A DNA stretch of 64,000 nucleotides, taken from Candidatus Doudnabacteria bacterium. Its GTDB lineage: Bacteria > Patescibacteriota > Doudnabacteria > UBA920. This document shows, one piece after another, positions 2,081-46,157 of this stretch (positions are counted from its first letter, which is position 1; each line of letters begins with the position of its first letter). A program made the position numbers and the translations under genes. The stretch lies in NCBI GenBank assembly GCA_038203095.1, contig JBBREH010000001.1:431-64430 (forward strand), written 5' to 3'. The notes beneath the pieces are model-generated. The model saw nothing but the letters and a program-made list of their open reading frames with translations. It ran no database searches and was not told the DNA's origin.

Positions 2081-3007
2081 ATGCCTGAACTGCCAGAAGT
2101 TCAAACTATAGTTAGCGAGCTTAATAGGAAATTAAAAAACCGAACTATAAAGTCGGTTGATGTTTTCGCGCCCAAAATGGTTGGGGTGGGTTCGGCGACG
2201 CTCTCTCCTAAAAGAACAGCCTCCGCCCAAACAGTAGAAAAATTTAAAATGCTGATAACTGGCAAAAGGTTTTTATCAGTACGCCGTCGCGCCAAGCTTT
2301 TAATTTTTAAGTTGTCGGGAGAGCTTTTTATGCTTGTTCATCTTAAAATGACCGGACAATTTATTTTTGAAGATAAAGTTTTGCGGGGCAAAACTTTAGG
2401 GAAATATCGGCTTTTGAATAAACTTAATGCGCCGTTAGTTCAGCTACCTTGCAAGCATACGCATGTGATTTTTAATTTTGTCGATCAGACAAAATTATAT
2501 TTTAACGATGTCCGCAAGTTCGGTTATTTAAAGTTGGTGCGCGTTGATGAAATATCCTCTGTTCGTGAACTAAACGAATACGGTCCTGAGCCGTTGGGTA
2601 AATATTTTACCGCCGGACACTTTTTGACGGCCGTCAAAAAGTGTCCGGACAGAAAAATCAAACAAATAATTATGGATAATAAAATTGTGGTGGGGATAGG
2701 CAATATTTACAGCGACGAAATTTTATTTCATGCCGGGGTCCGGCCGACGCGCTTGGTTAAATTACTGTCCGATGTTGAAATTAGCAGTATTTATAAATGG
2801 ATAAAGCCGGTATTAATAAAAGGCATAAAAGCCAAAGGTTCCAGCGTTGGCGACTTTGTCCGTACCGACGGCACCTGGGGCCAAATGGGCAAATTTCACT
2901 TTGTCTACGGACGTAGGGGGCAGAAATGCAAAAAATGTGGTACGACCATCGAATCAGTTAAGCTGGGCGGTCACACAGCTAGTTATTGCCCAAGATGTCA
3001 AGTGTAG
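2081..3007 (+). CDS. fpg: Formamidopyrimidine-DNA glycosylase (Fpg/Nei family)
   Basis: Starts MPELPEV (catalytic Pro2 after Met removal), so the true start is the ATG at 2081 rather than the ORF-track start. C-terminal zinc finger CPRCQ. Confidence 0.8.
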   Translation: MPELPEVQTIVSELNRKLKNRTIKSVDVFAPKMVGVGSATLSPKRTASAQTVEKFKMLITGKRFLSVRRRAKLLIFKLSGELFMLVHLKMTGQFIFEDKVLRGKTLGKYRLLNKLNAPLVQLPCKHTHVIFNFVDQTKLYFNDVRKFGYLKLVRVDEISSVRELNEYGPEPLGKYFTAGHFLTAVKKCPDRKIKQIIMDNKIVVGIGNIYSDEILFHAGVRPTRLVKLLSDVEISSIYKWIKPVLIKGIKAKGSSVGDFVRTDGTWGQMGKFHFVYGRRGQKCKKCGTTIESVKLGGHTASYCPRCQV

Positions 3008-3008
3008 A

Positions 3009-3061
3009 GTGCCCATTTATAGGCTATCTGAGACGCCGATGAATCGGCACGCTACACATAT
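3009..3061. repeat. 53-nt repeat element, copy 1 (intergenic, directly after the fpg stop)
   Basis: About 83 percent identical to 22366..22418. Contains a GCCGAT..ATCGGC hairpin and the shared core ATCGGCACGCTACAC. Confidence 0.7.
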
Positions 3062-6323: not shown

Positions 6324-6446
6324 AATTTTCAATTTTTAATTTCTAATTTTCAATGAATTTGAAATTTTGGAATTTATTAATTAAAACATTATAAATTGTT
6401 TAAAAATTGTAAATTGTAAATTAAAAATTAATTCTTTTTGAAATTT

Positions 6447-22084: not shown

Positions 22085-22200
22085 TTGACAAGATTGAGCA
22101 AGATTTTCATGCCAGAGGCAGATCCACCTTCGGCGGAAAATGATTGACAACATTGGAATGCAATTGTCTTTATAATCTTTTAAATCATGTTAATCAACTT

Positions 22201-22932
22201 ATGAAGCTGTCAATAATCATCCCAGCGCACAATGAAGAAAAAACCATTGCTCAGGTTTTGGAGCAGGTTTTAAAAGTGGATTTGGACGGGTGGGAGAAAG
22301 AGGTGGTTGTGGTGGATGACGGAAGTAGTGACGGGACAGGTACTATCCTGGAAAAGATTTGTAGCGTGCCCATTTATGGGCATTCCGGATCGCCGATAAA
22401 TCGGCACGCTACACTTATTAGCCACCCCACCAATCTCGGCAAAGGCGCGGCAATAAAATCGGCTTTGGTCAAAGCCACCGGGGATTACGTAATTATTCAG
22501 GACGCGGATTTGGAGTATAATCCGGGCGATATCGTTAATCTTTTATCGTTTATCCCTGACGATGGAAAACATCGGATTGCCATTTTTGGCAAGCGCGGTT
22601 ATAAAGCTTATCCGGAGCGCGGCTTCCACTATGTTATTGGCGCGTGGTTGCTTACTACTTTTTATAACTTGCTTTATGGCCAGCAACTTACGGATCTTTA
22701 CACTGGCTACAAATTAATCCCGACACGCATTTTTAAAGAACTAAACATTGAGTCCAACGGTTTTGAATTTGAAGCCGAAGTGGCTTGTAAGCTGGTGAAA
22801 AAAAATGTTATTATAAAGGAAGTAGAAATTAGTTATTTACCCAGAAACAAAGCTCAAGGTAAACATATTCGCTTTGTTGACGCCGTGAAAGGTTTTTGGA
22901 CTATTGTTAAAATTAGGCTATTTAAGAATTGA
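22201..22932 (+). CDS. GT2 glycosyltransferase (polyprenyl-phosphate sugar synthase/Dpm1-like)
   Basis: LSIIIPAHNEE...VVVVDDGSSDGT...DADLEYNP motifs. ATG at 22201. Carries a 53-nt repeat insertion at 22366..22418. Confidence 0.75.
   Translation: MKLSIIIPAHNEEKTIAQVLEQVLKVDLDGWEKEVVVVDDGSSDGTGTILEKICSVPIYGHSGSPINRHATLISHPTNLGKGAAIKSALVKATGDYVIIQDADLEYNPGDIVNLLSFIPDDGKHRIAIFGKRGYKAYPERGFHYVIGAWLLTTFYNLLYGQQLTDLYTGYKLIPTRIFKELNIESNGFEFEAEVACKLVKKNVIIKEVEISYLPRNKAQGKHIRFVDAVKGFWTIVKIRLFKN
22366..22418. repeat. 53-nt repeat element, copy 2 (in-frame inside the GT2 CDS)
   Basis: Matches 3009..3061; encodes VPIYGHSGSPINRHATL inserted before the GKG motif of the GT2. Confidence 0.7.
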
Positions 22933-23891
22933 TGCCAAACAGTGAGAGAATTTTAGTTGGAGGTGGCCCCAGCACATTGTTCGATGTTAGGGTTAAGGGC
23001 CGGGAAACAGAAACTTATCCTCCAGTTTTATTGACACAGGCAGAACAAGATTTTGCCGGGCAACTTTTTTTAGAATTGGAGAGCAAAGTAACTAGTTTTA
23101 GCGATTTTAAAGATTTCCCCAAAATTTTGATTGAGCAATTTCTTAAAGAATATACTGAGAAAGAGGAAGTGATTACAAAAATTTTTTTGCGGGAATTGGG
23201 CCTGATTGATTTTAAGTCGCTACTGTACCCCGGCACCAAGGAGAGTTTGCTTAAGGCCACTGAAATTTATGGCCCAAAATTAAAGAGTGTGCATTTATGG
23301 TCGCAGGGGGATGTAGATGCAACCGGCCATCAGACAAATAAAATTTTTAGAACCGGTTTAGGCGCGATTTTAAAGAGTTCCCGGGCGGCAAGTTTAAAGG
23401 ACAAACTTTTTTGGAATATCCGGACAGATAAATTTGCAAACATAGAAGGCATGCTTGATTCTGTTGCGGAGGGCCAGAAAGAGAAAGTGGTAGTAATTGA
23501 AGACAGTGTTGAGAATATTAAAAAAGTAACCAATATGTTGAAAGATAGGGCAACTGTTTTTCCGATTTGGGCTAATTACAGCCGCCGCGGCGCTAGTTTG
23601 CGAAAGAATAATCTTGAAGAATTTGAGCGACTAAAGAAGGAATATAACGGAATTGATTCTTTGGCGGAAATTTCTAGCAGAGAGAAAGAATTTGGGGAAG
23701 TATTCAAAGATGCCCATTTATTTTTGGATTTTGACGGGGTTTTAGCCAATAATGAAGAGCTTAGGCGGGTTAACGGTGAAGCTTTGCTCAAGGCATTTAT
23801 TATTGGACTTGGGGCGGGTAACCAAGAAAGGCAAAAATTAGTTGAAGAAATTCGGACAAAATTAAACTTGATCTCGCCTGAAAAAAATTAA
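22929..23891 (+). CDS. Hypothetical protein with HAD-like motifs in permuted order
   Basis: Motif-IV-like VVVIEDSVENI precedes motif-I-like FLDFDGVL near the C-terminus. Confidence 0.35.
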   Translation: MMPNSERILVGGGPSTLFDVRVKGRETETYPPVLLTQAEQDFAGQLFLELESKVTSFSDFKDFPKILIEQFLKEYTEKEEVITKIFLRELGLIDFKSLLYPGTKESLLKATEIYGPKLKSVHLWSQGDVDATGHQTNKIFRTGLGAILKSSRAASLKDKLFWNIRTDKFANIEGMLDSVAEGQKEKVVVIEDSVENIKKVTNMLKDRATVFPIWANYSRRGASLRKNNLEEFERLKKEYNGIDSLAEISSREKEFGEVFKDAHLFLDFDGVLANNEELRRVNGEALLKAFIIGLGAGNQERQKLVEEIRTKLNLISPEKN

Positions 23892-23905
23892 TAGTAAATA
23901 AATTT

Positions 23906-24898
23906 ATGGATAGAAATTTAGCTTTGGAATTTGTGCGGGTAACTGAGGCGGCGGCTATTGCAGCTAGTAAGTGGATAGGCAAGGGTGACGGTAAAAAGGC
24001 TGATGGCGCGGCAGTAGATGAAATGCGGTCGCGTTTTAATCAGATAGATTTTAAAGGCGTGGTGGTAATTGGTGAGGGGCAGAAAGACGAGGCGCCGGAA
24101 CTTTACACCGGGGAGAAGGTGGGACTTGGATGGAAAAACTCCAACCACCCCGGCCTTTCAGGCCACCCCTCCTTGAAAAGGAGGGGAGACTCCGTGTTTG
24201 ACCTTGCTGTTGACCCGCTTGAATGTACCGACAGCGTGGCTTATGGGCGTTATAATGCGATTGCGGTTATTGCGGCCGGAGCGCGGGGCTCGCTTTTAAG
24301 TGCGCCCGATACTTATATGGAAAAGTTGGCGGCCGGGCCAAAGGCTGCTAAAGTAATTAAAATGGGTGCGCCGGTTAAGCTAAACATTGAACGTACGGCC
24401 AAGGCTCTTGGTAAAAAAGTTGGGGATGTTACGGTGTGCATAATGGATAGAGAGCGCCATAAAGATTTAATTGGTCAGGTAAGAAAAATAGGCGCCAGAG
24501 TGCGGCTAATTACAGACGGCGACGTAGCGGGCGGGATAGCAACGTGTATGCCAGAATCGGGGATAGACCTGCTTATGGGCATTGGCGCTTCCGCAGAGGC
24601 AGTTTTGGCCGCCACAGCCATTAAAATTCTGGGTGGGCAAATATTCGCTCGCTTTAACCCAATGAAAGAAGCTCATCATCAATTGTTAAAAAAAGCCGGC
24701 CTTAACGACAAAAAAATTTACTCTGTAAACGACCTGGCCAAAGGTCAAACCCTAACCTTTACCGCCACAGGCATTATTGACGGCCCACTGCTTCAAGGGG
24801 TGAGGGTTGAGGGTAGCTACATTATAACCCATTCGATAGTAATCCGCGGTCAGAGCGGAACAATAAGATATATAACAACGCATCATAAGGAGAAATAG
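23906..24898 (+). CDS. glpX: Fructose-1,6-bisphosphatase class II (GlpX)
   Basis: Collinear with GlpX (LALEFVRVTEAAAIAA...GEGQKDEAPELYTGEKVG...DLAVDP). Carries an extra ~17 aa encoded by a palindromic element at 24149..24190. Confidence 0.85.
   Translation: MDRNLALEFVRVTEAAAIAASKWIGKGDGKKADGAAVDEMRSRFNQIDFKGVVVIGEGQKDEAPELYTGEKVGLGWKNSNHPGLSGHPSLKRRGDSVFDLAVDPLECTDSVAYGRYNAIAVIAAGARGSLLSAPDTYMEKLAAGPKAAKVIKMGAPVKLNIERTAKALGKKVGDVTVCIMDRERHKDLIGQVRKIGARVRLITDGDVAGGIATCMPESGIDLLMGIGASAEAVLAATAIKILGGQIFARFNPMKEAHHQLLKKAGLNDKKIYSVNDLAKGQTLTFTATGIIDGPLLQGVRVEGSYIITHSIVIRGQSGTIRYITTHHKEK
24149..24190. repeat. G/C-rich double hairpin inserted in-frame in glpX
   Basis: GGCC-TTTCA-GGCC followed by CCCCTCCTT-GAAA-AGGAGGGG; encodes PGLSGHPSLKRRGD, which is absent from E. 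coli GlpX at that point. Confidence 0.6.
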
Positions 24899-25345
24899 AA
24901 TTTTTAATTTTCAATTTGTAATTTTTAAACAATGTACAAATTTTATAATTATGAAGTATGATTTAGAGGAAAGAACGAGAAAATTTTCAAAAGAATTGAT
25001 TAGGTTTTTGAAAACGATTAAATCAAATTTAATAAACCAATCAATTATTTCTCAATTGGTTAGGTCTGCAACCAGTGTCGGAGCGAATTACTGTGAAGCG
25101 AATGCGGCTAGCTCTAAGAAAGATTTTACGAATAAAATATTTATTTGCAGGAAAGAAATTCAAGAAACAAAATATTGGTTTGAATTATTGGCAGAATCTA
25201 ATCCCGAAAGCAAAGATGAATTAAGAAAATTTTGGAAAGAAGCTCATGAATTGACGTTAATATTTAATAAAATATCAACATCTTTAAGATCAAAATTAGA
25301 AAATTGAAGAATTGTTTATAAATTAAAAATTGAAAATTAAAAATT
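24899..25345. mobile_element. IR-flanked cassette carrying a four-helix-bundle (IVS-type) protein gene, exactly between the glpX stop and the fba start
   Basis: 35-nt AT-rich inverted repeats at 24899..24933 and 25311..25345 (33/35 complementary). Confidence 0.55.
24951..25307 (+). CDS. Four-helix-bundle protein (23S rRNA intervening-sequence protein family)
   Basis: RSATSVGANYCEA...KDF..KI.ICRKEIQETKYWFELL motifs. Confidence 0.65.
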   Translation: MKYDLEERTRKFSKELIRFLKTIKSNLINQSIISQLVRSATSVGANYCEANAASSKKDFTNKIFICRKEIQETKYWFELLAESNPESKDELRKFWKEAHELTLIFNKISTSLRSKLEN

Positions 25346-26389
25346 ATGAATACATCTGAACTCAACAAAACCGCCAAACAAATGGTCGCGCCCGGGAAGG
25401 GGATTTTGGCCGCGGATGAGAGCGAGAAGACTGTGGGAAAAAGATTCGCTTCTATAAATTTAGAAAATAATGAAGCTAACCGCAAGGCTTTCCGGGAAAT
25501 GCTTTTAACGGCTCCCGGTGAAAATCAGTATGTGAGTGGTGTAATTTTACACGACGAGACCATTCGCCAAAGTTTAGATGATGGAAGAAGTTTTGTATCA
25601 ATTTTGCAAAATCAAAACATTTTACCGGGCATAAAAGTGGATTTGGGACTGCAAGAAGTTGGTACTGAAAAGCTTACTAAGGGCCTGGAAGGGTTGGACA
25701 CAAGACTTAAGGAATATACTGCCCTGGGCGCGAAATTTTGCAAATGGAGGGCGGTAATTACCATTGGCCAAGGAACCCCGACTCCTGAAAATATTCGTCA
25801 AAATGTTAAAGATTTAGCCCAATATGCGTTGGTTTGCCAGCAAAATGGACTGGTGCCAATTGTGGAGCCGGAAGTTTTGTTGGATGGTAATCACACCATA
25901 GAACAAAGCGAAGCGGCATTGGAAAAAACCTTAAAAGCACTAGTTGAGGAACTGACAGCCGCGGGCGTAAGTTTTGAGGGCGCGATTTTAAAAAGTAGTA
26001 TGGTGTTGCCGGGTAAAGATTCAGGCTCCAAAGCCACACCCGAGCAGGTTGCCGCAGCAACTATGCGTGTCTTTCAAAAGACTTTGCCGGCCAATTTAGC
26101 CGGAGTGGTGTTTTTGTCCGGCGGACAGGGTGATGTGGAAGCCACAGAAAATCTTAACGCCATAAATCAGCTGGGCTCACAAGCCTGGGCATTAAGTTTT
26201 TCTTACGCCCGGGCGCTTCAGGACGCAGCTACCAAAACTTGGACCGGTAAAAAAGAAAATTTGGCGGCGGCGCAAAAAGTCTTTTTGTTTCGGGTCAAAA
26301 TGAATAGCTTAGCCAGCCAGGGAAAATATTCAGCGTCTATGGAAGAAGTTGGTATGGCGTCTGCCAGCGCTTCAGCAAGTCAGAATTAA
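25346..26389 (+). CDS. fba: Fructose-bisphosphate aldolase, class I
   Basis: GKGILAADES motif and the class I aldolase fold pattern across 347 aa. Confidence 0.9.
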   Translation: MNTSELNKTAKQMVAPGKGILAADESEKTVGKRFASINLENNEANRKAFREMLLTAPGENQYVSGVILHDETIRQSLDDGRSFVSILQNQNILPGIKVDLGLQEVGTEKLTKGLEGLDTRLKEYTALGAKFCKWRAVITIGQGTPTPENIRQNVKDLAQYALVCQQNGLVPIVEPEVLLDGNHTIEQSEAALEKTLKALVEELTAAGVSFEGAILKSSMVLPGKDSGSKATPEQVAAATMRVFQKTLPANLAGVVFLSGGQGDVEATENLNAINQLGSQAWALSFSYARALQDAATKTWTGKKENLAAAQKVFLFRVKMNSLASQGKYSASMEEVGMASASASASQN

Positions 26390-26473
26390 AATAATTGCAG
26401 ATTTGAGATTGCAGATTTTAGAATTACTGCAGTCCGAATCCTAAATCTAAAATCCTAAATCTAAAATTTTATT

Positions 26474-27181
26474 ATGCCCCAAACCAAAAAAGCCAAGTTT
26501 ATACCAATTGTGCATTTAGAAAAAGTCCGCAAAGGCCATGTCAAAGCCGTACCGCAGTGGATGATAAAAAAGATTTCCGCTGAGTTTCTTAAAGGTTTTA
26601 AATTTTTGACCAAGTACAAAAAAGCCGTAAGCATTATGGGTTCGGCCAGAGTGGGTTTAAAAAATGGGGTTTATGATGAGGCAACTAAGCTAACGCATAA
26701 GCTCTCCAAGGCGGGTTTTGCCATAGTTACCGGTGGTGGACCGGGGATTATGGAAGCAGCTAATAAAGGCGCGTTTGAGGCCGGCGGTCAGTCTGTTGGC
26801 ATTAATATTCGCCTGCCTTTTGAACAGCGAACTAACAAATATGTAAAAGAATCGGAAGATTTTTCTTATTTTTTTACACGTAAGGTTATGCTGGAATACG
26901 CCTCTCAAATTTATGTATTTTTTCCCGGGGGTTTTGGTACGCTGGATGAGTTTTTTGAAATGATCACGCTAATCCAAACCGGAAAGGTTCATCCGGTGCC
27001 GGTAATTTTGGTCAATAAAGAATTTTGGTCTCCGCTATTAAAATGGATAGAAACTACAATCTACGAAAAAAATAACGCGATTAATAAAAACGATATGGAC
27101 CTTTACCATTTAGTCGACACAGCAGAAGAGGCGTACGAGGAAATAAAGGTTTTGGCAAAAGAAAAGCATTTGTTTAATTAG
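26474..27181 (+). CDS. LOG-family protein (cytokinin riboside 5'-monophosphate phosphoribohydrolase-like)
   Basis: MGSARVG...[15 protein letters not shown]...PGGFGTLDE motifs. Confidence 0.8.
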
Positions 27182-27191
27182 GGGGAAAGGA

Positions 27192-27649
27192 GACAAGCAA
27201 ACAAGCAAACAAGGAGACAAATAAATAGCTTTAAAGATATATTTGCTTGGCAAAAGGCTCATTTATTAGCCTTGGAAGTTTACAGACTGTCAAAAAAATA
27301 TCCGAAAGACGAGTTATATGGATTGACCAGCCAAACTCGTAGAGCAGTGGTTTCTGTGGCTTCAAATTTGGTTGAAGGTTTTAAGCGAGCAGACAATAAG
27401 GAAGATTCACATTTTTGTAATATAGCTCAGGCTTCTTTAGAGGAAGTTAGATATCAGTTACTTCTGGCGAGAGATCTGGGTTATATTAGTAATCTTGAAT
27501 GTGAAAAGACGGAGCAATTATCCGAAGAAGTTTCTAAGTTGATTTATTTGTGGATGAAAAGTAAGAAATAAGTAAGCAAGGAGACAGGGAGTCAAGCAAT
27601 TAAGGATACAAGCTTAAATGCGGAGCGCTTGTTTGCTTGTTTGCTTGTC
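27192..27649. mobile_element. IR-flanked cassette carrying a second four-helix-bundle protein gene, between the LOG gene and tal
   Basis: Perfect 22-nt inverted repeats GACAAGCAAACAAGCAAACAAG at 27192..27213 and 27628..27649. Confidence 0.6.
27272..27571 (+). CDS. Four-helix-bundle protein (23S rRNA IVS protein family), start uncertain
   Basis: YGLTSQTRRAVVSVASNLVEG motif. The family-typical N-terminus (FAWQKAH) extends in frame upstream to 27182 with no ATG/GTG; only the TTG at 27272 or an ATA is available. Confidence 0.6.
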   Translation: MEVYRLSKKYPKDELYGLTSQTRRAVVSVASNLVEGFKRADNKEDSHFCNIAQASLEEVRYQLLLARDLGYISNLECEKTEQLSEEVSKLIYLWMKSKK

Positions 27650-27668
27650 CCCCTTAACATACTTTCCT

Positions 27669-28505
27669 ATGACAACAAAAATCTTTCTCGACTCAGGCGA
27701 CCCCGTTGAAACCAAACAAGCTTTAAAGTTGCTTGGGTTTTTGGACGGGCAAACTACTAATCCGTCGTTAATTGCTAAAAATCCGGCCACCAGCGGAAAA
27801 AAATTTACTGAAGATGAACTGCTAAAATTTTACCGTGGTATAGTTACAGAAGTCTCGTCGCTCATTCCAAAAGGCAGTGTTTCAATAGAAGTTTATGCGG
27901 ACAAAAATATGTTGGCAAATGAAATGCTGGCGCAGGGTAGGGAGTTTAATACTTGGATTCCGAACGCCCATATTAAATATCCGACTACGACCGAAGGTTT
28001 AAAGGCAGCTGAAATAAGCGTGAAAGAGGGAATGAGGGTAAATATGACGCTAGTTTTTAGTCAGGAGCAGGCTGCTGCAGTTTATGCCGCAACAAAAGGA
28101 GCATTGCGCGGACAAGTTTATTTGTCGCCATTCGTGGGTAGGCTGGATGACCGTGGGGAGAATGGCATGGATTTTGTTTCTAACGTCGTAAAAATGTATG
28201 AACAAGGCGACGGACATGTGGAAATTTTGTCAGCTTCAATTAGGTCAAGCGAACATATGAGAAAGGCGATTGAACAGGGTAGTGATATTATTACGGCACC
28301 GCTAAAAGTTTTAAAAGAGTGGGTAGAGGCGGGATCTTCCTCCTCCCCTCGCCAGGGGAGGATGCCCATAGGACAGGAGAGTTTGCTGCCAATTCTTTAT
28401 CAGGATATCAGCTTAAACAAGCCCTGGCAGGAATATAATTTACAGCATAATTTAACTAATGCCGGTTTGGAAAAATTTACAAGTGACTGGAATTCCTTAT
28501 TATAA
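27669..28505 (+). CDS. tal: Transaldolase (Fsa/TalC-type)
   Basis: IFLDSGDP...TTNPSL motifs. ATG at 27669. C-terminal region carries an extra segment that includes the palindromic element at 28342..28361. Confidence 0.8.
   Translation: MTTKIFLDSGDPVETKQALKLLGFLDGQTTNPSLIAKNPATSGKKFTEDELLKFYRGIVTEVSSLIPKGSVSIEVYADKNMLANEMLAQGREFNTWIPNAHIKYPTTTEGLKAAEISVKEGMRVNMTLVFSQEQAAAVYAATKGALRGQVYLSPFVGRLDDRGENGMDFVSNVVKMYEQGDGHVEILSASIRSSEHMRKAIEQGSDIITAPLKVLKEWVEAGSSSSPRQGRMPIGQESLLPILYQDISLNKPWQEYNLQHNLTNAGLEKFTSDWNSLL
28342..28361. repeat. G/C-rich hairpin inserted in-frame in the transaldolase gene
   Basis: CCTCCCC-TCGCCA-GGGGAGG within a C-terminal extra segment (SSSSPRQGRMPIG). Confidence 0.55.
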
Positions 28506-28513
28506 CATAAAAT

Positions 28514-29248
28514 CCACTTGGAAGAGGGGACACCTCTTCCAAGTGGGACTAATCTATTAATAAAGCTTGAATTTGTTTTTGTTTTTCTATTAGAGGACCG
28601 CTTTCTTCTACAAATTTTTTATAATCGTTAACCGTCTTAAATTTATCCATAATAACTCGCTTATCACAAAGGCCATCGTTTCTTTTTTCAATGTAATCCG
28701 AATAACTACTAAAGGCATATTCATCCGGAGTTTTTACAATCCCGGCCACAGTTGGGTTTTGATGAATATAGGCCGAAAGCCAAGTTAAATAAGATTCATT
28801 TTCTACCGGTATGGCTTTGAATGCTCCTTGAAATAAATGGCCCACATGGTCGTATTTTTTTTGAAAGTAGACTGCGTAGCCGGTGCATAGTTTTTGGATC
28901 AGTTTGCTAATTTTAATTTCGTTGTTTTGTCTTATTAATAAATGAAAATGGTTAGGCATAAGACAATAGCAGATTAAAGAAAATGCATCTGTAGGCAATT
29001 GCTTTCTTTTGTATTTTATATCAAGAGAGCTTGGGCTAACTTCCAATTCATTTTCTGGGAATAAATTTTCTCTTAATCGATGAATAAAAATTCCATAATC
29101 TTGGGGATCAAAAAAAATATCATTTTTACCATTACCTCGATTAAAGACATGATAATAATTTCCCGCAGTAAAAGTTTTGTAATCACGATAACGCATAATC
29201 ATATTATACCATAAAATTAACTTGGAAGAGGGGACACCTCTTCCAGTT
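28514..29248. mobile_element. IS200/IS605-like or RAYT-like unit: Y1 transposase flanked by near-identical palindromic hairpins
   Basis: CCACTTGGAAGAGG-GGACA-CCTCTTCCAAGTGG at 28514..28547 and AACTTGGAAGAGG-GGACA-CCTCTTCCAGTT at 29219..29248; 40 nt from tRNA-Pro. Confidence 0.6.
28549..29202 (-). CDS. HUH-Y1 transposase (IS200-like / REP-associated tyrosine transposase-like)
   Basis: YHVFNRGN..IFFDPQDY; HUH motif in LMPNHFHLLI; downstream Tyr (YIHQNP). Probable start at M68 of the track ORF, because the upstream part overlaps tRNA-Pro. Confidence 0.65.
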   Translation of the reverse strand: MIMRYRDYKTFTAGNYYHVFNRGNGKNDIFFDPQDYGIFIHRLRENLFPENELEVSPSSLDIKYKRKQLPTDAFSLICYCLMPNHFHLLIRQNNEIKISKLIQKLCTGYAVYFQKKYDHVGHLFQGAFKAIPVENESYLTWLSAYIHQNPTVAGIVKTPDEYAFSSYSDYIEKRNDGLCDKRVIMDKFKTVNDYKKFVEESGPLIEKQKQIQALLID

Positions 29249-29288: not shown

Positions 29289-29362
29289 CGGGCTGTAGTA
29301 TACCGGTAGTACGTCTGCTTTGGGAGCAGATAGACTGGGTTCGATTCCCAGCAGCCCGACCA
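29289..29362 (+). tRNA. tRNA-Pro (anticodon TGG), CCA encoded
   Basis: Acceptor CGGGCTG/CAGCCCG; anticodon stem TCTGC/GCAGA with loop TTTGGGA; T-arm CTGGG-TTCGATT-CCCAG. Confidence 0.8.
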
Positions 29363-38431: not shown

Positions 38432-38588
38432 GGTCATATGGAATTTTGCCAATGTCGGCAGGGTAAATAATAGCGTTCGACTTTATGGAGAACCTATTAT
38501 TTACTTTCGCTTAAGCGAAAAATATCTTCTCCATAAAGTCGAAGAATATTTTCCGCCGCCGCTCAACAATGGTCAAATTCCATATGGC
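38432..38588. repeat. Long nested imperfect palindrome (about 155 nt)
   Basis: Perfect 15-bp inverted repeat CGACTTTATGGAGAA at 38478/38533. Central TTTCGCTTAAGCGAAA. Outer inverted repeat CATATGGAATT at 38436/38575. Confidence 0.7.
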
Positions 38589-38634: not shown

Positions 38635-39441
38635 GTGAATGAATCGGCTAACTACGCCACTAATATCCATCATATGACAAAAAAAGACACATCTTGGGGC
38701 AAAGTCGCCAACTGGTACAACAAGCATTTGGAAGAAGGGGATGATACTTACCAGGAAAAATTAATTAAGCCTAACTTGCTTAGAATTTTGGCTCCGCGTG
38801 TGGGTGAAAATATTTTAGATGTGGGCTGTGGGCAGGGTTATTTTTCGCGTGTGTTGGCGGCTGCTGGCGCGAAAATTGTGGGTGTTGATGTTGCAGGGGA
38901 GTTAATTAGGCTTGCCAAGGAGCAGGCAGGTAAAAACGAGGTTTATTTAGTTTTGTCCGCAGAAAAACTTGCAACGCTTGCCGACAGCCGTTTTGATGCC
39001 GCCATTTGCGTTTTGGCTTTGCAAAATATAAAAAATTTACAGGCCGCGATTTTGGAAATGTCGCGTGTACTTAAAACAGGCGGCCGCGCGGTATTGGTGC
39101 TAAACCATCCTGCGTTCCGCGTGCCGGGAGCGTCGGCATGGGCTTATGACGAAAAAGCGAATATCCAATATCGTAATATCAACAAATATCTTTCCGAGGT
39201 TTCTATGGAAGTTGATATGACCCAAGGCATAGTGGACCCTAAAAAGAAAAAATTTACCCTGTCTTTTCACCACCCTCTACAAGTCTACTTTAAAGCCTTT
39301 TTTAAAGCCGGACTTGTTGTAACCCGCCTGGAAGAATGGACTTCCCACAAAACTTCCGACACCGGCCCACGCAAACCCGCAGAAGACAAAGCCCGCAAAG
39401 AAATCCCGCTATTTATGTGCTTGGAGTTGAGGAAAATATAA
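38635..39441 (+). CDS. Class I SAM-dependent methyltransferase
   Basis: ILDVGCGQGYFSRVL motif I. Confidence 0.7.
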   Translation: MNESANYATNIHHMTKKDTSWGKVANWYNKHLEEGDDTYQEKLIKPNLLRILAPRVGENILDVGCGQGYFSRVLAAAGAKIVGVDVAGELIRLAKEQAGKNEVYLVLSAEKLATLADSRFDAAICVLALQNIKNLQAAILEMSRVLKTGGRAVLVLNHPAFRVPGASAWAYDEKANIQYRNINKYLSEVSMEVDMTQGIVDPKKKKFTLSFHHPLQVYFKAFFKAGLVVTRLEEWTSHKTSDTGPRKPAEDKARKEIPLFMCLELRKI

Positions 39442-43980: not shown

Positions 43981-44105
43981 AATTTCAGATTTTAGATTGA
44001 TGATTTTAGATTGACTACATCTTATATTTTATTCTACCTTAAAATTCATTGATTTAAAAGGGTTTTTATGGTAAAGTGTTAAGGATTAAAGATTAAGGAT
44101 TAAAA

Positions 44106-46157
44106 ATGTCAAGCAAAAAGATTGCGCTCATTACCGGTATTACGGGCCAAGATGGCTCATATTTGGCGGAATTTTTATTGGCCAAAGGTTACGAGGTTCA
44201 CGGAATTATCCGTCGTGCTAGCGTATTTAATACCGAACGCATTGAACAAATTTATCAGGATCCTAACCTGCCGCACAGACAGTTATTTTTGCATTACGGC
44301 GATTTAGCCGACGCTTCAAATTTAAACCAGTTGCTTAAAAAAATTCAGCCTACAGAAATTTATAATTTGGGTGCGCAAAGTCACGTAAAAGTGAGTTTTG
44401 AAATTCCGGAATATACCGCCAATATTGACGCTTTGGGAACTTTAAGGTTGCTAGATGCCATCAGGGAAAATAAAATTGCCACCAAGTTTTACCAGGCGGG
44501 TTCCAGCGAAATGTTTGGCGATGTTCTACAAACACCCCAGTCGGAAAAGACGCCTTTTAATCCGGCCAGTCCTTACGGCGCGGCAAAAGTTTTTTCCCAT
44601 CATATTTGCAAAAATTATCGCGAGGCTTACGGAATGTTTATTTGCAACGGCATTTTATTTAATCACGAATGCTTAACAGCCCAAACCCCTTTGGTAATTA
44701 GAAAGAATGGGCTTTTAGATATTGCCGCAATAGAAGAAATAGTTCCTCATAGAGAAAATCCAAAACACGGAATTAAATACACAACAGTTGCCGATAAAGA
44801 GTTAGAAGTTTGGGATGGGGGTAAGTGGACAGCAATAAAAATACTAACAGCAACTTGGAATGAGTCCGGTTCTAAAAATGACAAAAAGCTCAAAAGAGTG
44901 ATTAGTAGGGGGGCTTACTATGAGGCCACAAGCGATCATATTTCATTTTTGGAAGGAGGGCGGGAAATCAAGACTGTCGATTTGTTCAAGGGAAACTGTT
45001 TGGAGCTAAAAAAGTTACCTGCTTTAACTAATATTATGTCTCTTACCTTAGAAGAAGCGGAATTTTTGGGTATGATGGCAGGCGATGGGTATATCAGTCA
45101 AGAAGGCAAAGGTAGATTTATAAATAATAATAAGTCATTACGAGAACGGATTGTTAAATTGTGGCAACAGATTGCGGGAGGCTTTAGCAGGGAAGGTGAA
45201 CATCCAAGCGGGTTCGTAAAGGGCAAAAACGTAAAATCAATAGAGTTGGCGGGCAATCCTCGTTATTTGCGTTATATATGGAGCGAACTTTACAATGAGA
45301 AATTGTTTAAAAAAGTTCCTGGCAGAGTTTTAAATAGTAATATTCAGGTTATGAGAGCCTTTTTAAGGGGCTACAACCTATGCGACGGTCTTAAAGCCGG
45401 CAAGCAAAGAACAGAGTTTAAGTCTTTTACAACCAATTCTGCGGTGTTGGCGTCTGGTTTGTGGTGGCTGCTAGATCAAGCAATGGGTTTAAGAATTACT
45501 CTGCACCCAGAATTTAGAAAGGATAAATTGTATTTTCATTTGAATATAAATACTGACAAGGTTACTTTAAAAGGCAAGCATCTCAAGAAGAAAATAAATG
45601 AAATTAAAGATGTAAAAGATTTTAAGTATACGGGATGGTTGTTTGACCTTGAAACAGAAAGTGGGACTTTTTCGGCGGGGGTAGGGTTATCATGGGTGCA
45701 TAATTCCCCAAGGCGCGGTAAAACTTTTGTGACGCGCAAAATTACTACAGGCATTGCGTCTATTTTGGCCGGAAAAACCAAGAAGATTTACCTGGGAAAT
45801 TTAAACGCCAAGCGGGATTGGGGTTTTGCGCCTGAGTACATAGAGGCTATGTGGCTAATGTTGCAGCAAAATAAGCCGGATGATTACGTAATTGCCACGG
45901 GCGAAACCCATTCAATTAAAGAATTTTTAGATATTGCTTTTAAGCTCGTGGGAATTAAAGACTGGAAAAAATACATTGGTATTGACCCAAAATATTATCG
46001 TCCTCAGGAGGTTAATCTTTTGCTCGGCGACGCCGGCAAAGCCAAAAAAAAGTTAGGCTGGAAACCCAAGGTGAAATTTAAAGAGTTGGTTAAAATAATG
46101 TTGGAAGCGGATTTAAAAGAAATCGGCCTAAGCCCGGCAAAATATATTAAAGTATGA
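44106..46157 (+). CDS. gmd: GDP-mannose 4,6-dehydratase interrupted by an intein (precursor 683 aa)
   Basis: Exteins are collinear with Gmd ([17 protein letters not shown]...ILFNHE | [14 protein letters not shown]...). A 345-aa insertion lies between E188 and S534. Confidence 0.85.
44670..45704 (+). other. Intein with LAGLIDADG homing-endonuclease domain inside gmd
   Basis: Begins with Cys (CLTAQTPLV), TxxH block (TSDH), two LAGLIDADG-like motifs ([26 protein letters not shown]), ends ...GVGLSWVHN followed by +1 Ser. Confidence 0.8.

Follow-up and report, generated by a model that had tools for sequence, protein, structure and literature searches.

Inverted heptad arrays bounding a four-helix-bundle protein gene at the glpX-fba junction of a Candidatus Doudnabacteria bacterium: a probable intervening-sequence-type cassette

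The 64,000-nucleotide stretch of Candidatus Doudnabacteria bacterium DNA analyzed here (contig JBBREH010000001.1, positions 431 to 64,430; hereafter the window) contains a 447-bp element at positions 24899-25345 that fills the junction between the genes glpX and fba. With moderate confidence, we favor the interpretation that this element is a cassette of the intervening sequence (IVS) type, in which a promoterless gene for a basic four-helix-bundle (4HB) protein with the S23p/Avd fold is bounded by inverted arrays of AATTTYN heptads plus AAACAAT. On balance, the family to which it belongs appears to be very large and to reside at intercistronic junctions of Patescibacteria, with gene-less hairpins and sister subfamilies having other 7-8-nt units among its members. 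That a family of cassettes bounded by inverted repeats (IRs) and related to the rRNA IVS elements is real can be stated with high confidence. Coordinates are positions in the window, and L001, L173, and similar labels denote the related loci that were compared. The features of the glpX-fba region are as follows.

23906-24898, forward strand: glpX, class II fructose-1,6-bisphosphatase, the upstream cistron (PF03320, E 1e-119; TIGR00330)
24899-24933, forward strand: left arm, four heptads and the conserved core AAACAAT (from the sequence, the repeat search, and the family consensus)
24934-24950, forward strand: leader of the 4HB open reading frame (ORF), 17 nt, AU-rich, without a Shine-Dalgarno (SD) motif, inside the 56-nt pairing
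24951-25307, forward strand: gene for the 118-aa 4HB protein of the S23p/"23S rRNA IVS protein" family, isoelectric point 9.4 (PF05635/TIGR02436)
25311-25345, forward strand: right arm, core ATTGTTT and inverted heptads ATAAATT AAAAATT GAAAATT AAAAATT
25346-26389, forward strand: fba, class I fructose-bisphosphate aldolase, the downstream cistron (PF00274, E 5e-130; NF033379)

The left arm (AATTTTTAATTTTCAATTTGTAATTTTTAAACAAT) starts on the base right after the glpX stop codon TAG (24896-24898), and the right arm (ATTGTTTATAAATTAAAAATTGAAAATTAAAAATT) is followed on the very next base by the ATG of fba at 25346; three bases lie between the end of the cassette ORF and the right arm. A reverse-strand pattern search with the left arm found the right arm with two mismatches, that is, with 33 of 35 positions complementary, whereas the expectation for such a match was 0 in 100 dinucleotide-preserving shuffles. 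The original prediction, which was made from the letters alone and placed IRs of 35 nt (33/35) directly against the glpX stop and the fba ATG, was borne out by the sequence, the pattern search, and the shuffles. In the repeat search, the pairing of the arms extended to 56 nt at 84% (24899-24954 with 25290-25345), thereby taking in the start codon of the cassette ORF. The left arm reads as the tandem heptads AATTTTT AATTTTC AATTTGT AATTTTT followed by AAACAAT, and much of the 33/35 complementarity arises because both arms are inverted arrays of one conserved unit. The GC content of the cassette was 25-31%, compared with 41% for the window.

As a specificity control, flanking IRs were scored for every ORF of at least 90 aa in all DNA compared. 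An IR score of at least 18 was obtained for 64% of 90 4HB ORFs, versus 1% of 769 other ORFs in the Patescibacteria contigs. The complementarity of the arms is far from chance and specific to the 4HB gene family. The two closest protein relatives (88% and 87% identical) likewise sit between glpX and fba, whereas a 77% relative (L005) lies in an unrelated context, downstream of a giant gene. L005 and the 88% relative (L001) both share the arm type of the window cassette, including its conserved inner core AAACAAT...ATTGTTT. Over 79 loci, the arm consensus was (AATTTYN)x3-4 + AAACAAT, with a period of 7 in 60 of 67 subfamily-A cassettes. The gene of this subfamily was thus found together with its arms at the orthologous site in L001 and in unrelated contexts, namely in L005 and dozens of metagenome loci. 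These loci and the 64% versus 1% association support the claim that the gene and its IRs form a module residing in an mRNA spacer.

Relatives of a second subfamily, B, to which the other 4HB gene of the window belongs (L018, L021, L026, L173, and L176), have IR arms built of other 7-8-nt units with 27-35% GC, namely ACAGTAN, AAGTTGT, AAGTATA, AGCAAAC, and TAAGTNNG, and a third subfamily (L022 and L176) has an IR with 43% GC. What is conserved across the superfamily is the inverted symmetry and the short tandem periodicity, not a particular sequence. Since the sister subfamilies use other units at 27-43% GC, the IR cannot be AT-rich low complexity; this possibility, which had been named as a way in which the prediction could fail, is excluded by these arms and by the specificity control.

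Cassettes with strong IRs fit closely between genes of the same direction. The upstream neighbor was co-oriented in 48 of 50 such loci and the downstream neighbor in 42 of 47, and the median gaps were 4 nt on the upstream side, between stop codon and left arm, and 5 nt on the downstream side, between right arm and start codon. Consensus matches to promoters and terminators were at chance level in the region 23700-27800 (7 promoter-like sites versus 7.1 expected, and 5 terminator-like sites versus 4.7 expected), and a promoter or terminator of the cassette's own was rejected. The cassettes are promoterless and exactly fill intercistronic junctions.

In L122 (9-75), L136 (4959-5030), and L142 (646-700), small GC-rich palindromes (e.g., CCCGACATAGTACGGGATCCCGTATTTCATCGGGAC) lie between the heptad array and the AAACAAT core, so that other mini-elements nest inside some left arms. 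Genes of 130-132 aa for PD-(D/E)XK proteins (PF13366 PDDEXK_3, E 5e-27) were found in L013 (5954-6352) and also in L018, L020, and L026, at the LOG-tal junction, which in the window is the site of a 4HB cassette. They are flanked by IRs with scores of 17-29 and thus represent another family of cargo genes bounded by IRs at intercistronic sites in the manner of the 4HB cassettes. Within the upstream cistron itself, GlpX of the window has an in-frame 18-aa insert (about 24128-24190, within GWKNSNHPGLSGHPSLKRRGD) encoded by two GC-rich mini-hairpins (GGCCTTTCAGGCC and CCCCTCCTTGAAAAGGAGGGG); L176 has this insert too, L173 has a shorter one, and L001 has none.

The 118-aa protein matched PF05635 with 60.8 bits (cutoff 33.8, E 1.7e-16) and TIGR02436 with 79.4 bits (cutoff 24, E 2e-22). 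An AlphaFold2 (AF2) monomer model (predicted local distance difference test score, pLDDT, 93) had helices at residues 5-20, 27-51, 56-83, and 85-117. In Foldseek comparisons, it resembled the S23p-family structures 2RLD and 2GSC with template modeling (TM) scores of 0.78-0.84 and, more distantly, the Avd protein of a diversity-generating retroelement (DGR; 4DWL/8UBE) with TM scores of about 0.65-0.7; phmmer matched 2RLD with E 1.5e-12. The assignment of the ORF to the rRNA IVS protein family was accordingly supported by the profiles and the predicted fold. The deposited structure of 2RLD has five chains, and 2GSC and 4DWL are listed with chains up to E. More than 3300 homologues (E <= 1e-3) were found, many of them 70-88% identical, and those with a named source carried the labels Moranbacteria, Parcubacteria, or Patescibacteria; 8076 clusters were matched in a protein library with clustering at 50% identity. 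An alignment of 30 sequences of the subfamily had 43 invariant columns.

Comparison of the window with L001 indicated that the 4HB gene has the lowest nonsynonymous divergence (pN) of the four genes compared (4HB 0.07, glpX 0.14, fba 0.27, LOG 0.23), with amino-acid identities of 88%, 82%, 61%, and 66%, respectively. Synonymous sites were saturated in all four, with a synonymous divergence (pS) of 0.86 for 4HB and 0.76-0.78 for the flanks. By these values, the protein is under strong purifying selection as the most constrained gene of its neighborhood, and the cassette at glpX-fba is an old resident, its insertion being as old as the flanking genes. No relative was found in 2.9 M viral contigs in two scans, one with the single protein and one with the family alignment, and no PADLOC model matched either 4HB protein of the window; carriage of the family by phages and a role in anti-phage defence were both rejected.

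Occupancy of the junctions differs among relatives. The order tkt-glpX-fba-LOG-tal is kept among them, and the adjacency of glpX and fba reaches as far as Actinomycetota. Among genomes with 72-87% identical GlpX, the occupancy of the tkt-glpX, glpX-fba, and LOG-tal junctions varies independently. A 4HB cassette is present at tkt-glpX in L173, L018, L021, and L026 and is lacking in L001, L176, and L178, while LOG-tal is filled in the window, L173, L176, L178, and L021 and empty in L001. At glpX-fba, the AATTTYN-type cassette occurs in the window, L001, and L096, its position being kept also in the P0003 contig. In L019, L022, and L176, the same junction is occupied by a 4HB subfamily of 135-137 aa, and in L023 and L029 by other 4HB types, so that at least four different 4HB subfamilies or types are found there among relatives. 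Unrelated small ORFs occupy it in L013, L018, L020, L021, L024, L177, and L178, and a GC-rich palindrome resembling repetitive extragenic palindromic (REP) elements does so in L026. Relatives lacking the cassette, with which a comparison had been proposed, were also found: the spacer is 10 nt in L173 (AATATAAATT) and 15-33 nt in L025, L030, and L031. Because some relatives lack the cassette and others have different 4HB subfamilies, the slot has been both gained and lost. We are fairly confident that the cassettes come and go, and are in this sense mobile, on evolutionary timescales.

The cassettes of L130 and L154 are 94% identical (pS 0.28, pN 0.01). The genes upstream of them are homologous and those downstream are unrelated, with the synteny break located exactly at the 3' side of the cassette. 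In L130 (200-740), a segment of about 30 nt that contains a small palindrome of its own (AAGCAAAGCTTGTTTTTTCGCAAGCTCAAAA) lies before the 4HB ATG and recurs right after the heptads of the right arm, whereas L154 (2900-3420) has the upstream copy only. The repeated segment could stem from a second cassette, in tandem or partial, or from a duplication that accompanied an insertion.

The window contains a second cassette (27181-27655, at the LOG-tal junction) and gene-less hairpins, the features of which are as follows.

27181-27213, forward strand: left arm of the second cassette, octamer units (repeat search; closing stem in the folds)
27215-27571 (called as 27272-27571), forward strand: second 4HB gene (PF05635, E 4e-30)
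27627-27655, forward strand: right arm of the second cassette, GCTTGTTTGCTTGTTTGCTTGTCCCCC, within the ORF start that was wrongly called at 27618
6324-6429, forward strand: gene-less hairpin of the same arm family as the glpX-fba cassette, in the groES-groEL spacer
26401-26467, forward strand: gene-less hairpin with the heptad AGATTTN / NAAATCT, 26 nt at 81%, in the fba-LOG spacer

The arms of the second cassette pair over 28 nt at 93% (27186-27213 with 27628-27655) and consist of AAGCAAAC and AAGGAGAC octamers. The second 4HB gene has AGA at 27215 in place of the ancestral ATG (the L173 ortholog begins MLINNFKDIF), and it either begins at ATA 27221 or TTG 27272 or is newly disabled. Just past the right arm, no more than four residues from 27672, is the beginning of the Pfam TAL_FSA match. 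The groES-groEL hairpin is 106 nt long and makes up most of the 123-nt spacer; its right arm (6395-6429), found as a minus-strand match, is a third arm copy in the window with three mismatches to the cassette arm. This hairpin is a decayed copy. The unit of the fba-LOG hairpin resembles the arms of the 4HB cassette of L029. Hairpins at fba-LOG have unrelated units, AGATTTN in the window and GTGACAG in L178, and L173 has a solo array only at this junction. Gene-less hairpins were also found in L097, L107, and L153/L169, and those seen, which are small in number, had the F-to-R arrangement of arms only. Furthermore, 7-nt arrays without a gene were observed at 26390-26473 and 43981-44105 in the window, in L025 (3980-4000), and in L123 (800-827), with solo arrays located directly upstream of start codons (AAGGATTAAAGATTAAGGATT before the ATG at 44106; AAGAATT x3-4 before ATG in L025 and L123). 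Such short-period arrays may have been left behind by cassette arms, or 5' leaders may have them independently of any cassette.

When 24889-25355 was folded, the stem closing the cassette was predicted in both the minimum free energy (MFE) and the centroid structure (z -3.2), and the arms folded alone gave -26.4 kcal/mol (z -8.3). The second cassette likewise closed in its MFE and centroid structures (z -6.6). Folding of the two IRs, which had been suggested as a check, therefore yielded the expected stem. In the explanation that we propose, the cassette would be read through from the promoter of the host operon, and its arms would pair in the polycistronic RNA to form an AU-rich stem of about 35 bp from which the 4HB cistron is looped out. 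In this geometry, glpX would stop and fba would start at one base from opposite strands of the helix base, and the spacing between them would again be the 2-15 nt that separates stop and start where a junction has little or no insert. We propose that insertion into a tightly coupled operon is tolerated because the stem brings the glpX stop and the fba start together; in parallel, the IVS stem in rRNA keeps the two halves of 23S together. By analogy with the rRNA IVSs, the stem would probably be a substrate of RNase III. The 4HB protein, the solved homologues of which are deposited as five-chain assemblies, would most likely bind nucleic acid, plausibly its own heptad arrays, and cassettes would be gained, replaced, and lost at junctions over evolutionary time. 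The parts of this explanation differ in strength: a functional RNA stem or RNase III processing, which leans on the analogy with rRNA, is put forward only tentatively, and binding of the protein specifically to its own heptads is a doubtful proposition.

Several results weigh against the pairing of the arms in RNA and against mobility as parts of this explanation. Mismatches between arms showed no G:U bias (74 G:U in the sense RNA versus 76 in the antisense only, p = 0.93), and arms of the same cassette agreed at 21.5 of 28 heptad positions versus 20.1 of 28 for arms combined in trans (permutation 2/5000). Since the cis match barely exceeds the trans match, most of the complementarity is conserved heptad sequence and not covariation. 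Selection for RNA pairing was accordingly negative in the wobble-asymmetry test and left only a small cis-over-trans excess. The AATTT positions of the heptads are conserved as sequence, which recognition by a protein or common descent would fit better than a pure pairing constraint. The groES-groEL hairpin folded no better than shuffles (z -0.35), and no signature motif of RNase III was found in the 64-kb window. An earlier idea, that the purine-rich right arm serves as a ribosome-binding site for fba and the left arm as its anti-sequence, was rejected in view of SD-like motifs (positions -18 to -6) in only 7 of 49 window genes and of several start codons that directly follow TATAAT (e.g., ...tggtataat ATG; 5793, 1942, and 29202 on the minus strand). 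This pattern suggests frequent leaderless or non-SD initiation in this organism. As to mobility, no cassette pair of at least 95% identity with different flanks was present among about 80 loci, and recent transposition was rejected on this ground; the arm copies of the window are themselves diverged and not near-identical. No target-site duplication was recognized by eye at the junctions of the window, L001, L005, and L173-L178, where the AATT ends of the arms could mask a short one. With no such pairs in different contexts and no viral relatives, movement is evident only on evolutionary timescales. The mobility that had been predicted therefore stands in so far as the mosaic occupancy of the junctions is concerned, but not as recent movement, against which the saturated pS (0.86 versus 0.76-0.78) and the lack of near-identical copies speak.

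The same observations bear on an alternative in which the element acts at the DNA level. Its arms would then be terminal inverted repeats (TIRs), that is, arrays of binding sites for a 4HB oligomer or for a host or trans-acting recombinase, and the RNA stem would be incidental. Conservation of the AATTT heptad and AAACAAT as sequence across genomes without covariation, and the strand symmetry of the arm mismatches, are what this alternative would lead one to expect. Likewise, the gene-less derivatives resemble miniature inverted-repeat transposable elements (MITEs), each 4HB subfamily has a repeat unit of its own, as transposases have their own TIRs, and a Y1 transposase gene lies 1 kb away (28549-29202). 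That transposase is, however, flanked by an unrelated GC-rich palindrome, and the cassette itself encodes no recombinase but only a 118-aa 4HB protein without a known catalytic motif. Neither target-site duplications, by eye at the inspected junctions, nor near-identical copies at different sites were seen, and the gene-less hairpins, though few, all have one orientation to transcription, which a DNA-only constraint would not need. We consider a purely DNA-level element unlikely, if not greatly so. A quite improbable explanation is that the 4HB gene is a domesticated host gene for a housekeeping nucleic-acid-binding factor, with the stem as a cis-regulatory or processing signal and the patchy distribution as a result of differential loss. 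The strong purifying selection, the synonymous divergence equal to that of the flanks, the position kept in L001, the P0003 contig, and L096, and the very high conservation of sequence throughout the family would agree with this. A host gene would not account for the presence of non-orthologous 4HB subfamilies with different arms in the same slot of other genomes or of the same subfamily in many unrelated contexts; moreover, the gene-less hairpins and solo arrays look like decay products, and in the second window copy the start codon is lost.

Two further explanations have very little probability. The 4HB protein might be the accessory protein (Avd) of a DGR, given that its fold is related to bAvd (TM 0.67-0.72) and that the second copy in the window weakly matches bAvd (31.3 versus a cutoff of 40) and DivGenRetAVD (29.1 versus a cutoff of 80). 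Both matches are, however, below the curated cutoffs, the protein of the glpX-fba cassette matches no Avd model, and the genes around it (tkt, glpX, fba, LOG, and tal) include neither a reverse transcriptase (RT) nor an adjacent template repeat/variable repeat (TR/VR) pair, the rest of the window being unscreened for RT; an accessory role of this kind is highly improbable. Even less credible is chance, by which heptad microsatellites would be present throughout the AT-rich spacers of this genome and two of them would stand beside a small gene by coincidence. The arms are indeed low-complexity tandem repeats, short-period arrays without a gene exist at 26390-26473 and 43981-44105, and solo arrays precede start codons in empty slots (L025 and L123). 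Nevertheless, no match was obtained in 100 shuffles, the inner core AAACAAT/ATTGTTT is conserved, and the 64% versus 1% association with 4HB genes, together with the arms of subfamilies B and C that are not AT-rich, refutes this explanation.

Among known systems, the IVSs of rRNA genes (Leptospira, Coxiella burnetii, and Haemophilus, and insertions in the candidate phyla radiation, CPR) are the closest to the IVS-type cassette that we favor, sharing with it the protein family in the loop and terminal IRs that close a long stem. The Coxiella IVS, of 428-444 nt, interrupts helix 45 of 23S rRNA, and its 28-bp terminal stem is cut in the middle by RNase III (PMC4990558). Its loop has an S23p ORF with a poor SD, preceded by three to four tandem heptamers (GACAGAT) before the ATG, the number of which varies among strains, and this ORF was reported to be decaying and probably untranslated (PMC4990558). 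The S23p protein of Xanthomonas is reported to be a homopentameric toroid (PMC4990558). The IVS ORF has been without a known function since 1993, and the mobility of IVSs is an open question (PMC4990558); according to that paper, Ralph and McClelland proposed that the IVS is a mobile element and its ORF a component of mobility. For CPR bacteria, ORFs of 23S_rRNA_IVP are on record from insertions in 16S and 23S, in a report in which arms, heptads, and mRNA contexts are unmentioned (PMC11270868), and a figure legend of a large clustering study lists the 23S rRNA IVP domain among CRISPR-associated domains (PMC10910872). Such a listing may reflect either a genuine linkage or the tandem or inverted repeats beside these genes. 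A full-text search of the literature returned no description of IR-bounded 4HB cassettes in protein-coding operons, and the family is apparently undescribed so far.

The present cassette is similar to the Coxiella IVS in size (447 nt versus 428-444 nt) and in having tandem heptamers beside its ORF, and to rRNA IVSs in general in having no promoter of its own, presumably being transcribed within a host RNA, and having a poor or absent SD before the ORF. By contrast, its host is a polycistronic mRNA (glpX-fba) and not helix 25/45 of 23S rRNA, its arms are themselves the heptad arrays, its ORF is under strong purifying selection whereas that of Coxiella is reported as decaying, and excision by RNase III, which is known for the rRNA IVSs, is here an analogy only. 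An Rfam scan gave no rRNA in the window, nor in 20 related loci in which a large ORF is absent from one or both flanks, and an rRNA context for the AATTTYN subfamily was rejected. Since it has the stem, the ORF, and the heptamers but does not reside in 23S rRNA, the cassette is regarded as an IVS-kind variant outside rRNA and not as an IVS member.

Resemblance to other elements is more partial. Correia elements, enterobacterial repetitive intergenic consensus (ERIC) sequences, and REPINs are MITE-like intergenic repeats co-transcribed with operons. The present cassettes share with them the small size, the IR-bounded position in spacers, the mRNA hairpins, and the gene-less copies, but differ in that a conserved ORF for a protein other than a transposase is part of the full-length form, that the arms consist of 7-8-nt units in tandem, that copies are diverged, and that no target-site duplication was seen by eye. 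Terminal inverted repeats are present as in MITEs and TIR transposons, and no cognate transposase was found: the sole ORF of the cassette is the 4HB gene, and the palindromes of the nearby Y1 transposase are unrelated. DGR Avd (4DWL/8UBE), which acts bound to RNA and RT, is likewise a basic protein with the 4HB fold and structures consistent with five chains (chains up to E), but neither RT nor TR/VR is adjacent here, and no Avd-specific model is matched above its threshold. Free-standing homing-endonuclease genes sit between conserved phage genes ("intronless homing"); like these and like integron cassettes, the 4HB genes are small, promoterless, and co-oriented between conserved genes, with mosaic occupancy. 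Unlike homing genes, they encode no nuclease motifs, and unlike integron cassettes, they have no adjacent integrase, attI, or array, and bear arms on both sides instead of a single 3' attC; the 4HB cassettes are dispersed singly in housekeeping operons. Eukaryotic foldback transposons also have long inverted termini of short tandem repeats and many arms-only copies, although they belong to another domain of life and another scale, and a shared mechanism is not implied.

Other repeats and palindromes of the window were noted in addition. The Y1/IS200-like transposase ORF (28549-29202, minus strand, PF01797, E 1.9e-11; region 28517-29248) has a copy of one GC-rich palindrome, CTTGGAAGAGGGGACACCTCTTCC(A)AG, at either end, in a REPtron- or IS200-like arrangement, beyond which a tRNA is located (29289-29359). 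Palindromic doublets of GTAG type, GTAGCGTGCCCATTTATGGGC ... GCCGATAAATCGGCACGCTAC, occur at 3004-3055 and 22361-22412 (4 arm matches versus 0.09 expected). The latter doublet lies in frame within a glycosyltransferase ORF of the GT2 family (22144-22932; peptide CSVPIYGHSGSPINRHATL), and the same type of element is what occupies the glpX-fba slot of L026; the doublets look like REP/REPIN-like elements inserted in coding sequence. A nested palindrome (38435-38586), unrelated to the heptad arms, was found in a 267-nt spacer before the ORF at 38635, with outer arms at 38435-38455 and 38566-38586 (21 nt, 86%) and inner arms at 38469-38506 and 38513-38550 (38 nt, 79%).

Taken together, a gene-plus-IR module with heptamers is abundant in protein-coding operons of Patescibacteria, beyond a handful of rRNA genes, and thereby offers a large comparative data set for two questions, the recognition of repeats by the protein and the processing of the stem. 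For annotation, the arms matter because their translation yields false starts or N-terminal extensions that are spurious (e.g., 27618), and because breaks in gene order occur at the operon junctions that they mark. A wider reading, to which we assign a low probability, is that the rRNA IVSs are a minority of a larger class of autonomous elements, each consisting of a gene for a pentameric 4HB protein and inverted arrays of about five 7-8-nt repeats, possibly with one repeat per subunit. Equally speculative within it, the protein would recognize the arms and drive propagation or excision of the element, at the RNA or DNA level, into any highly transcribed RNA, be it an rRNA helix or an intercistronic junction. 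In a further improbable extension, specificity classes would arise as protein and repeat unit diversify together, and hairpins without a gene would be mobilized in trans. If true, this reading would, after 30 years, assign a function to the S23p/IVS protein family and would define a new type of prokaryotic mobile element without a conventional recombinase.

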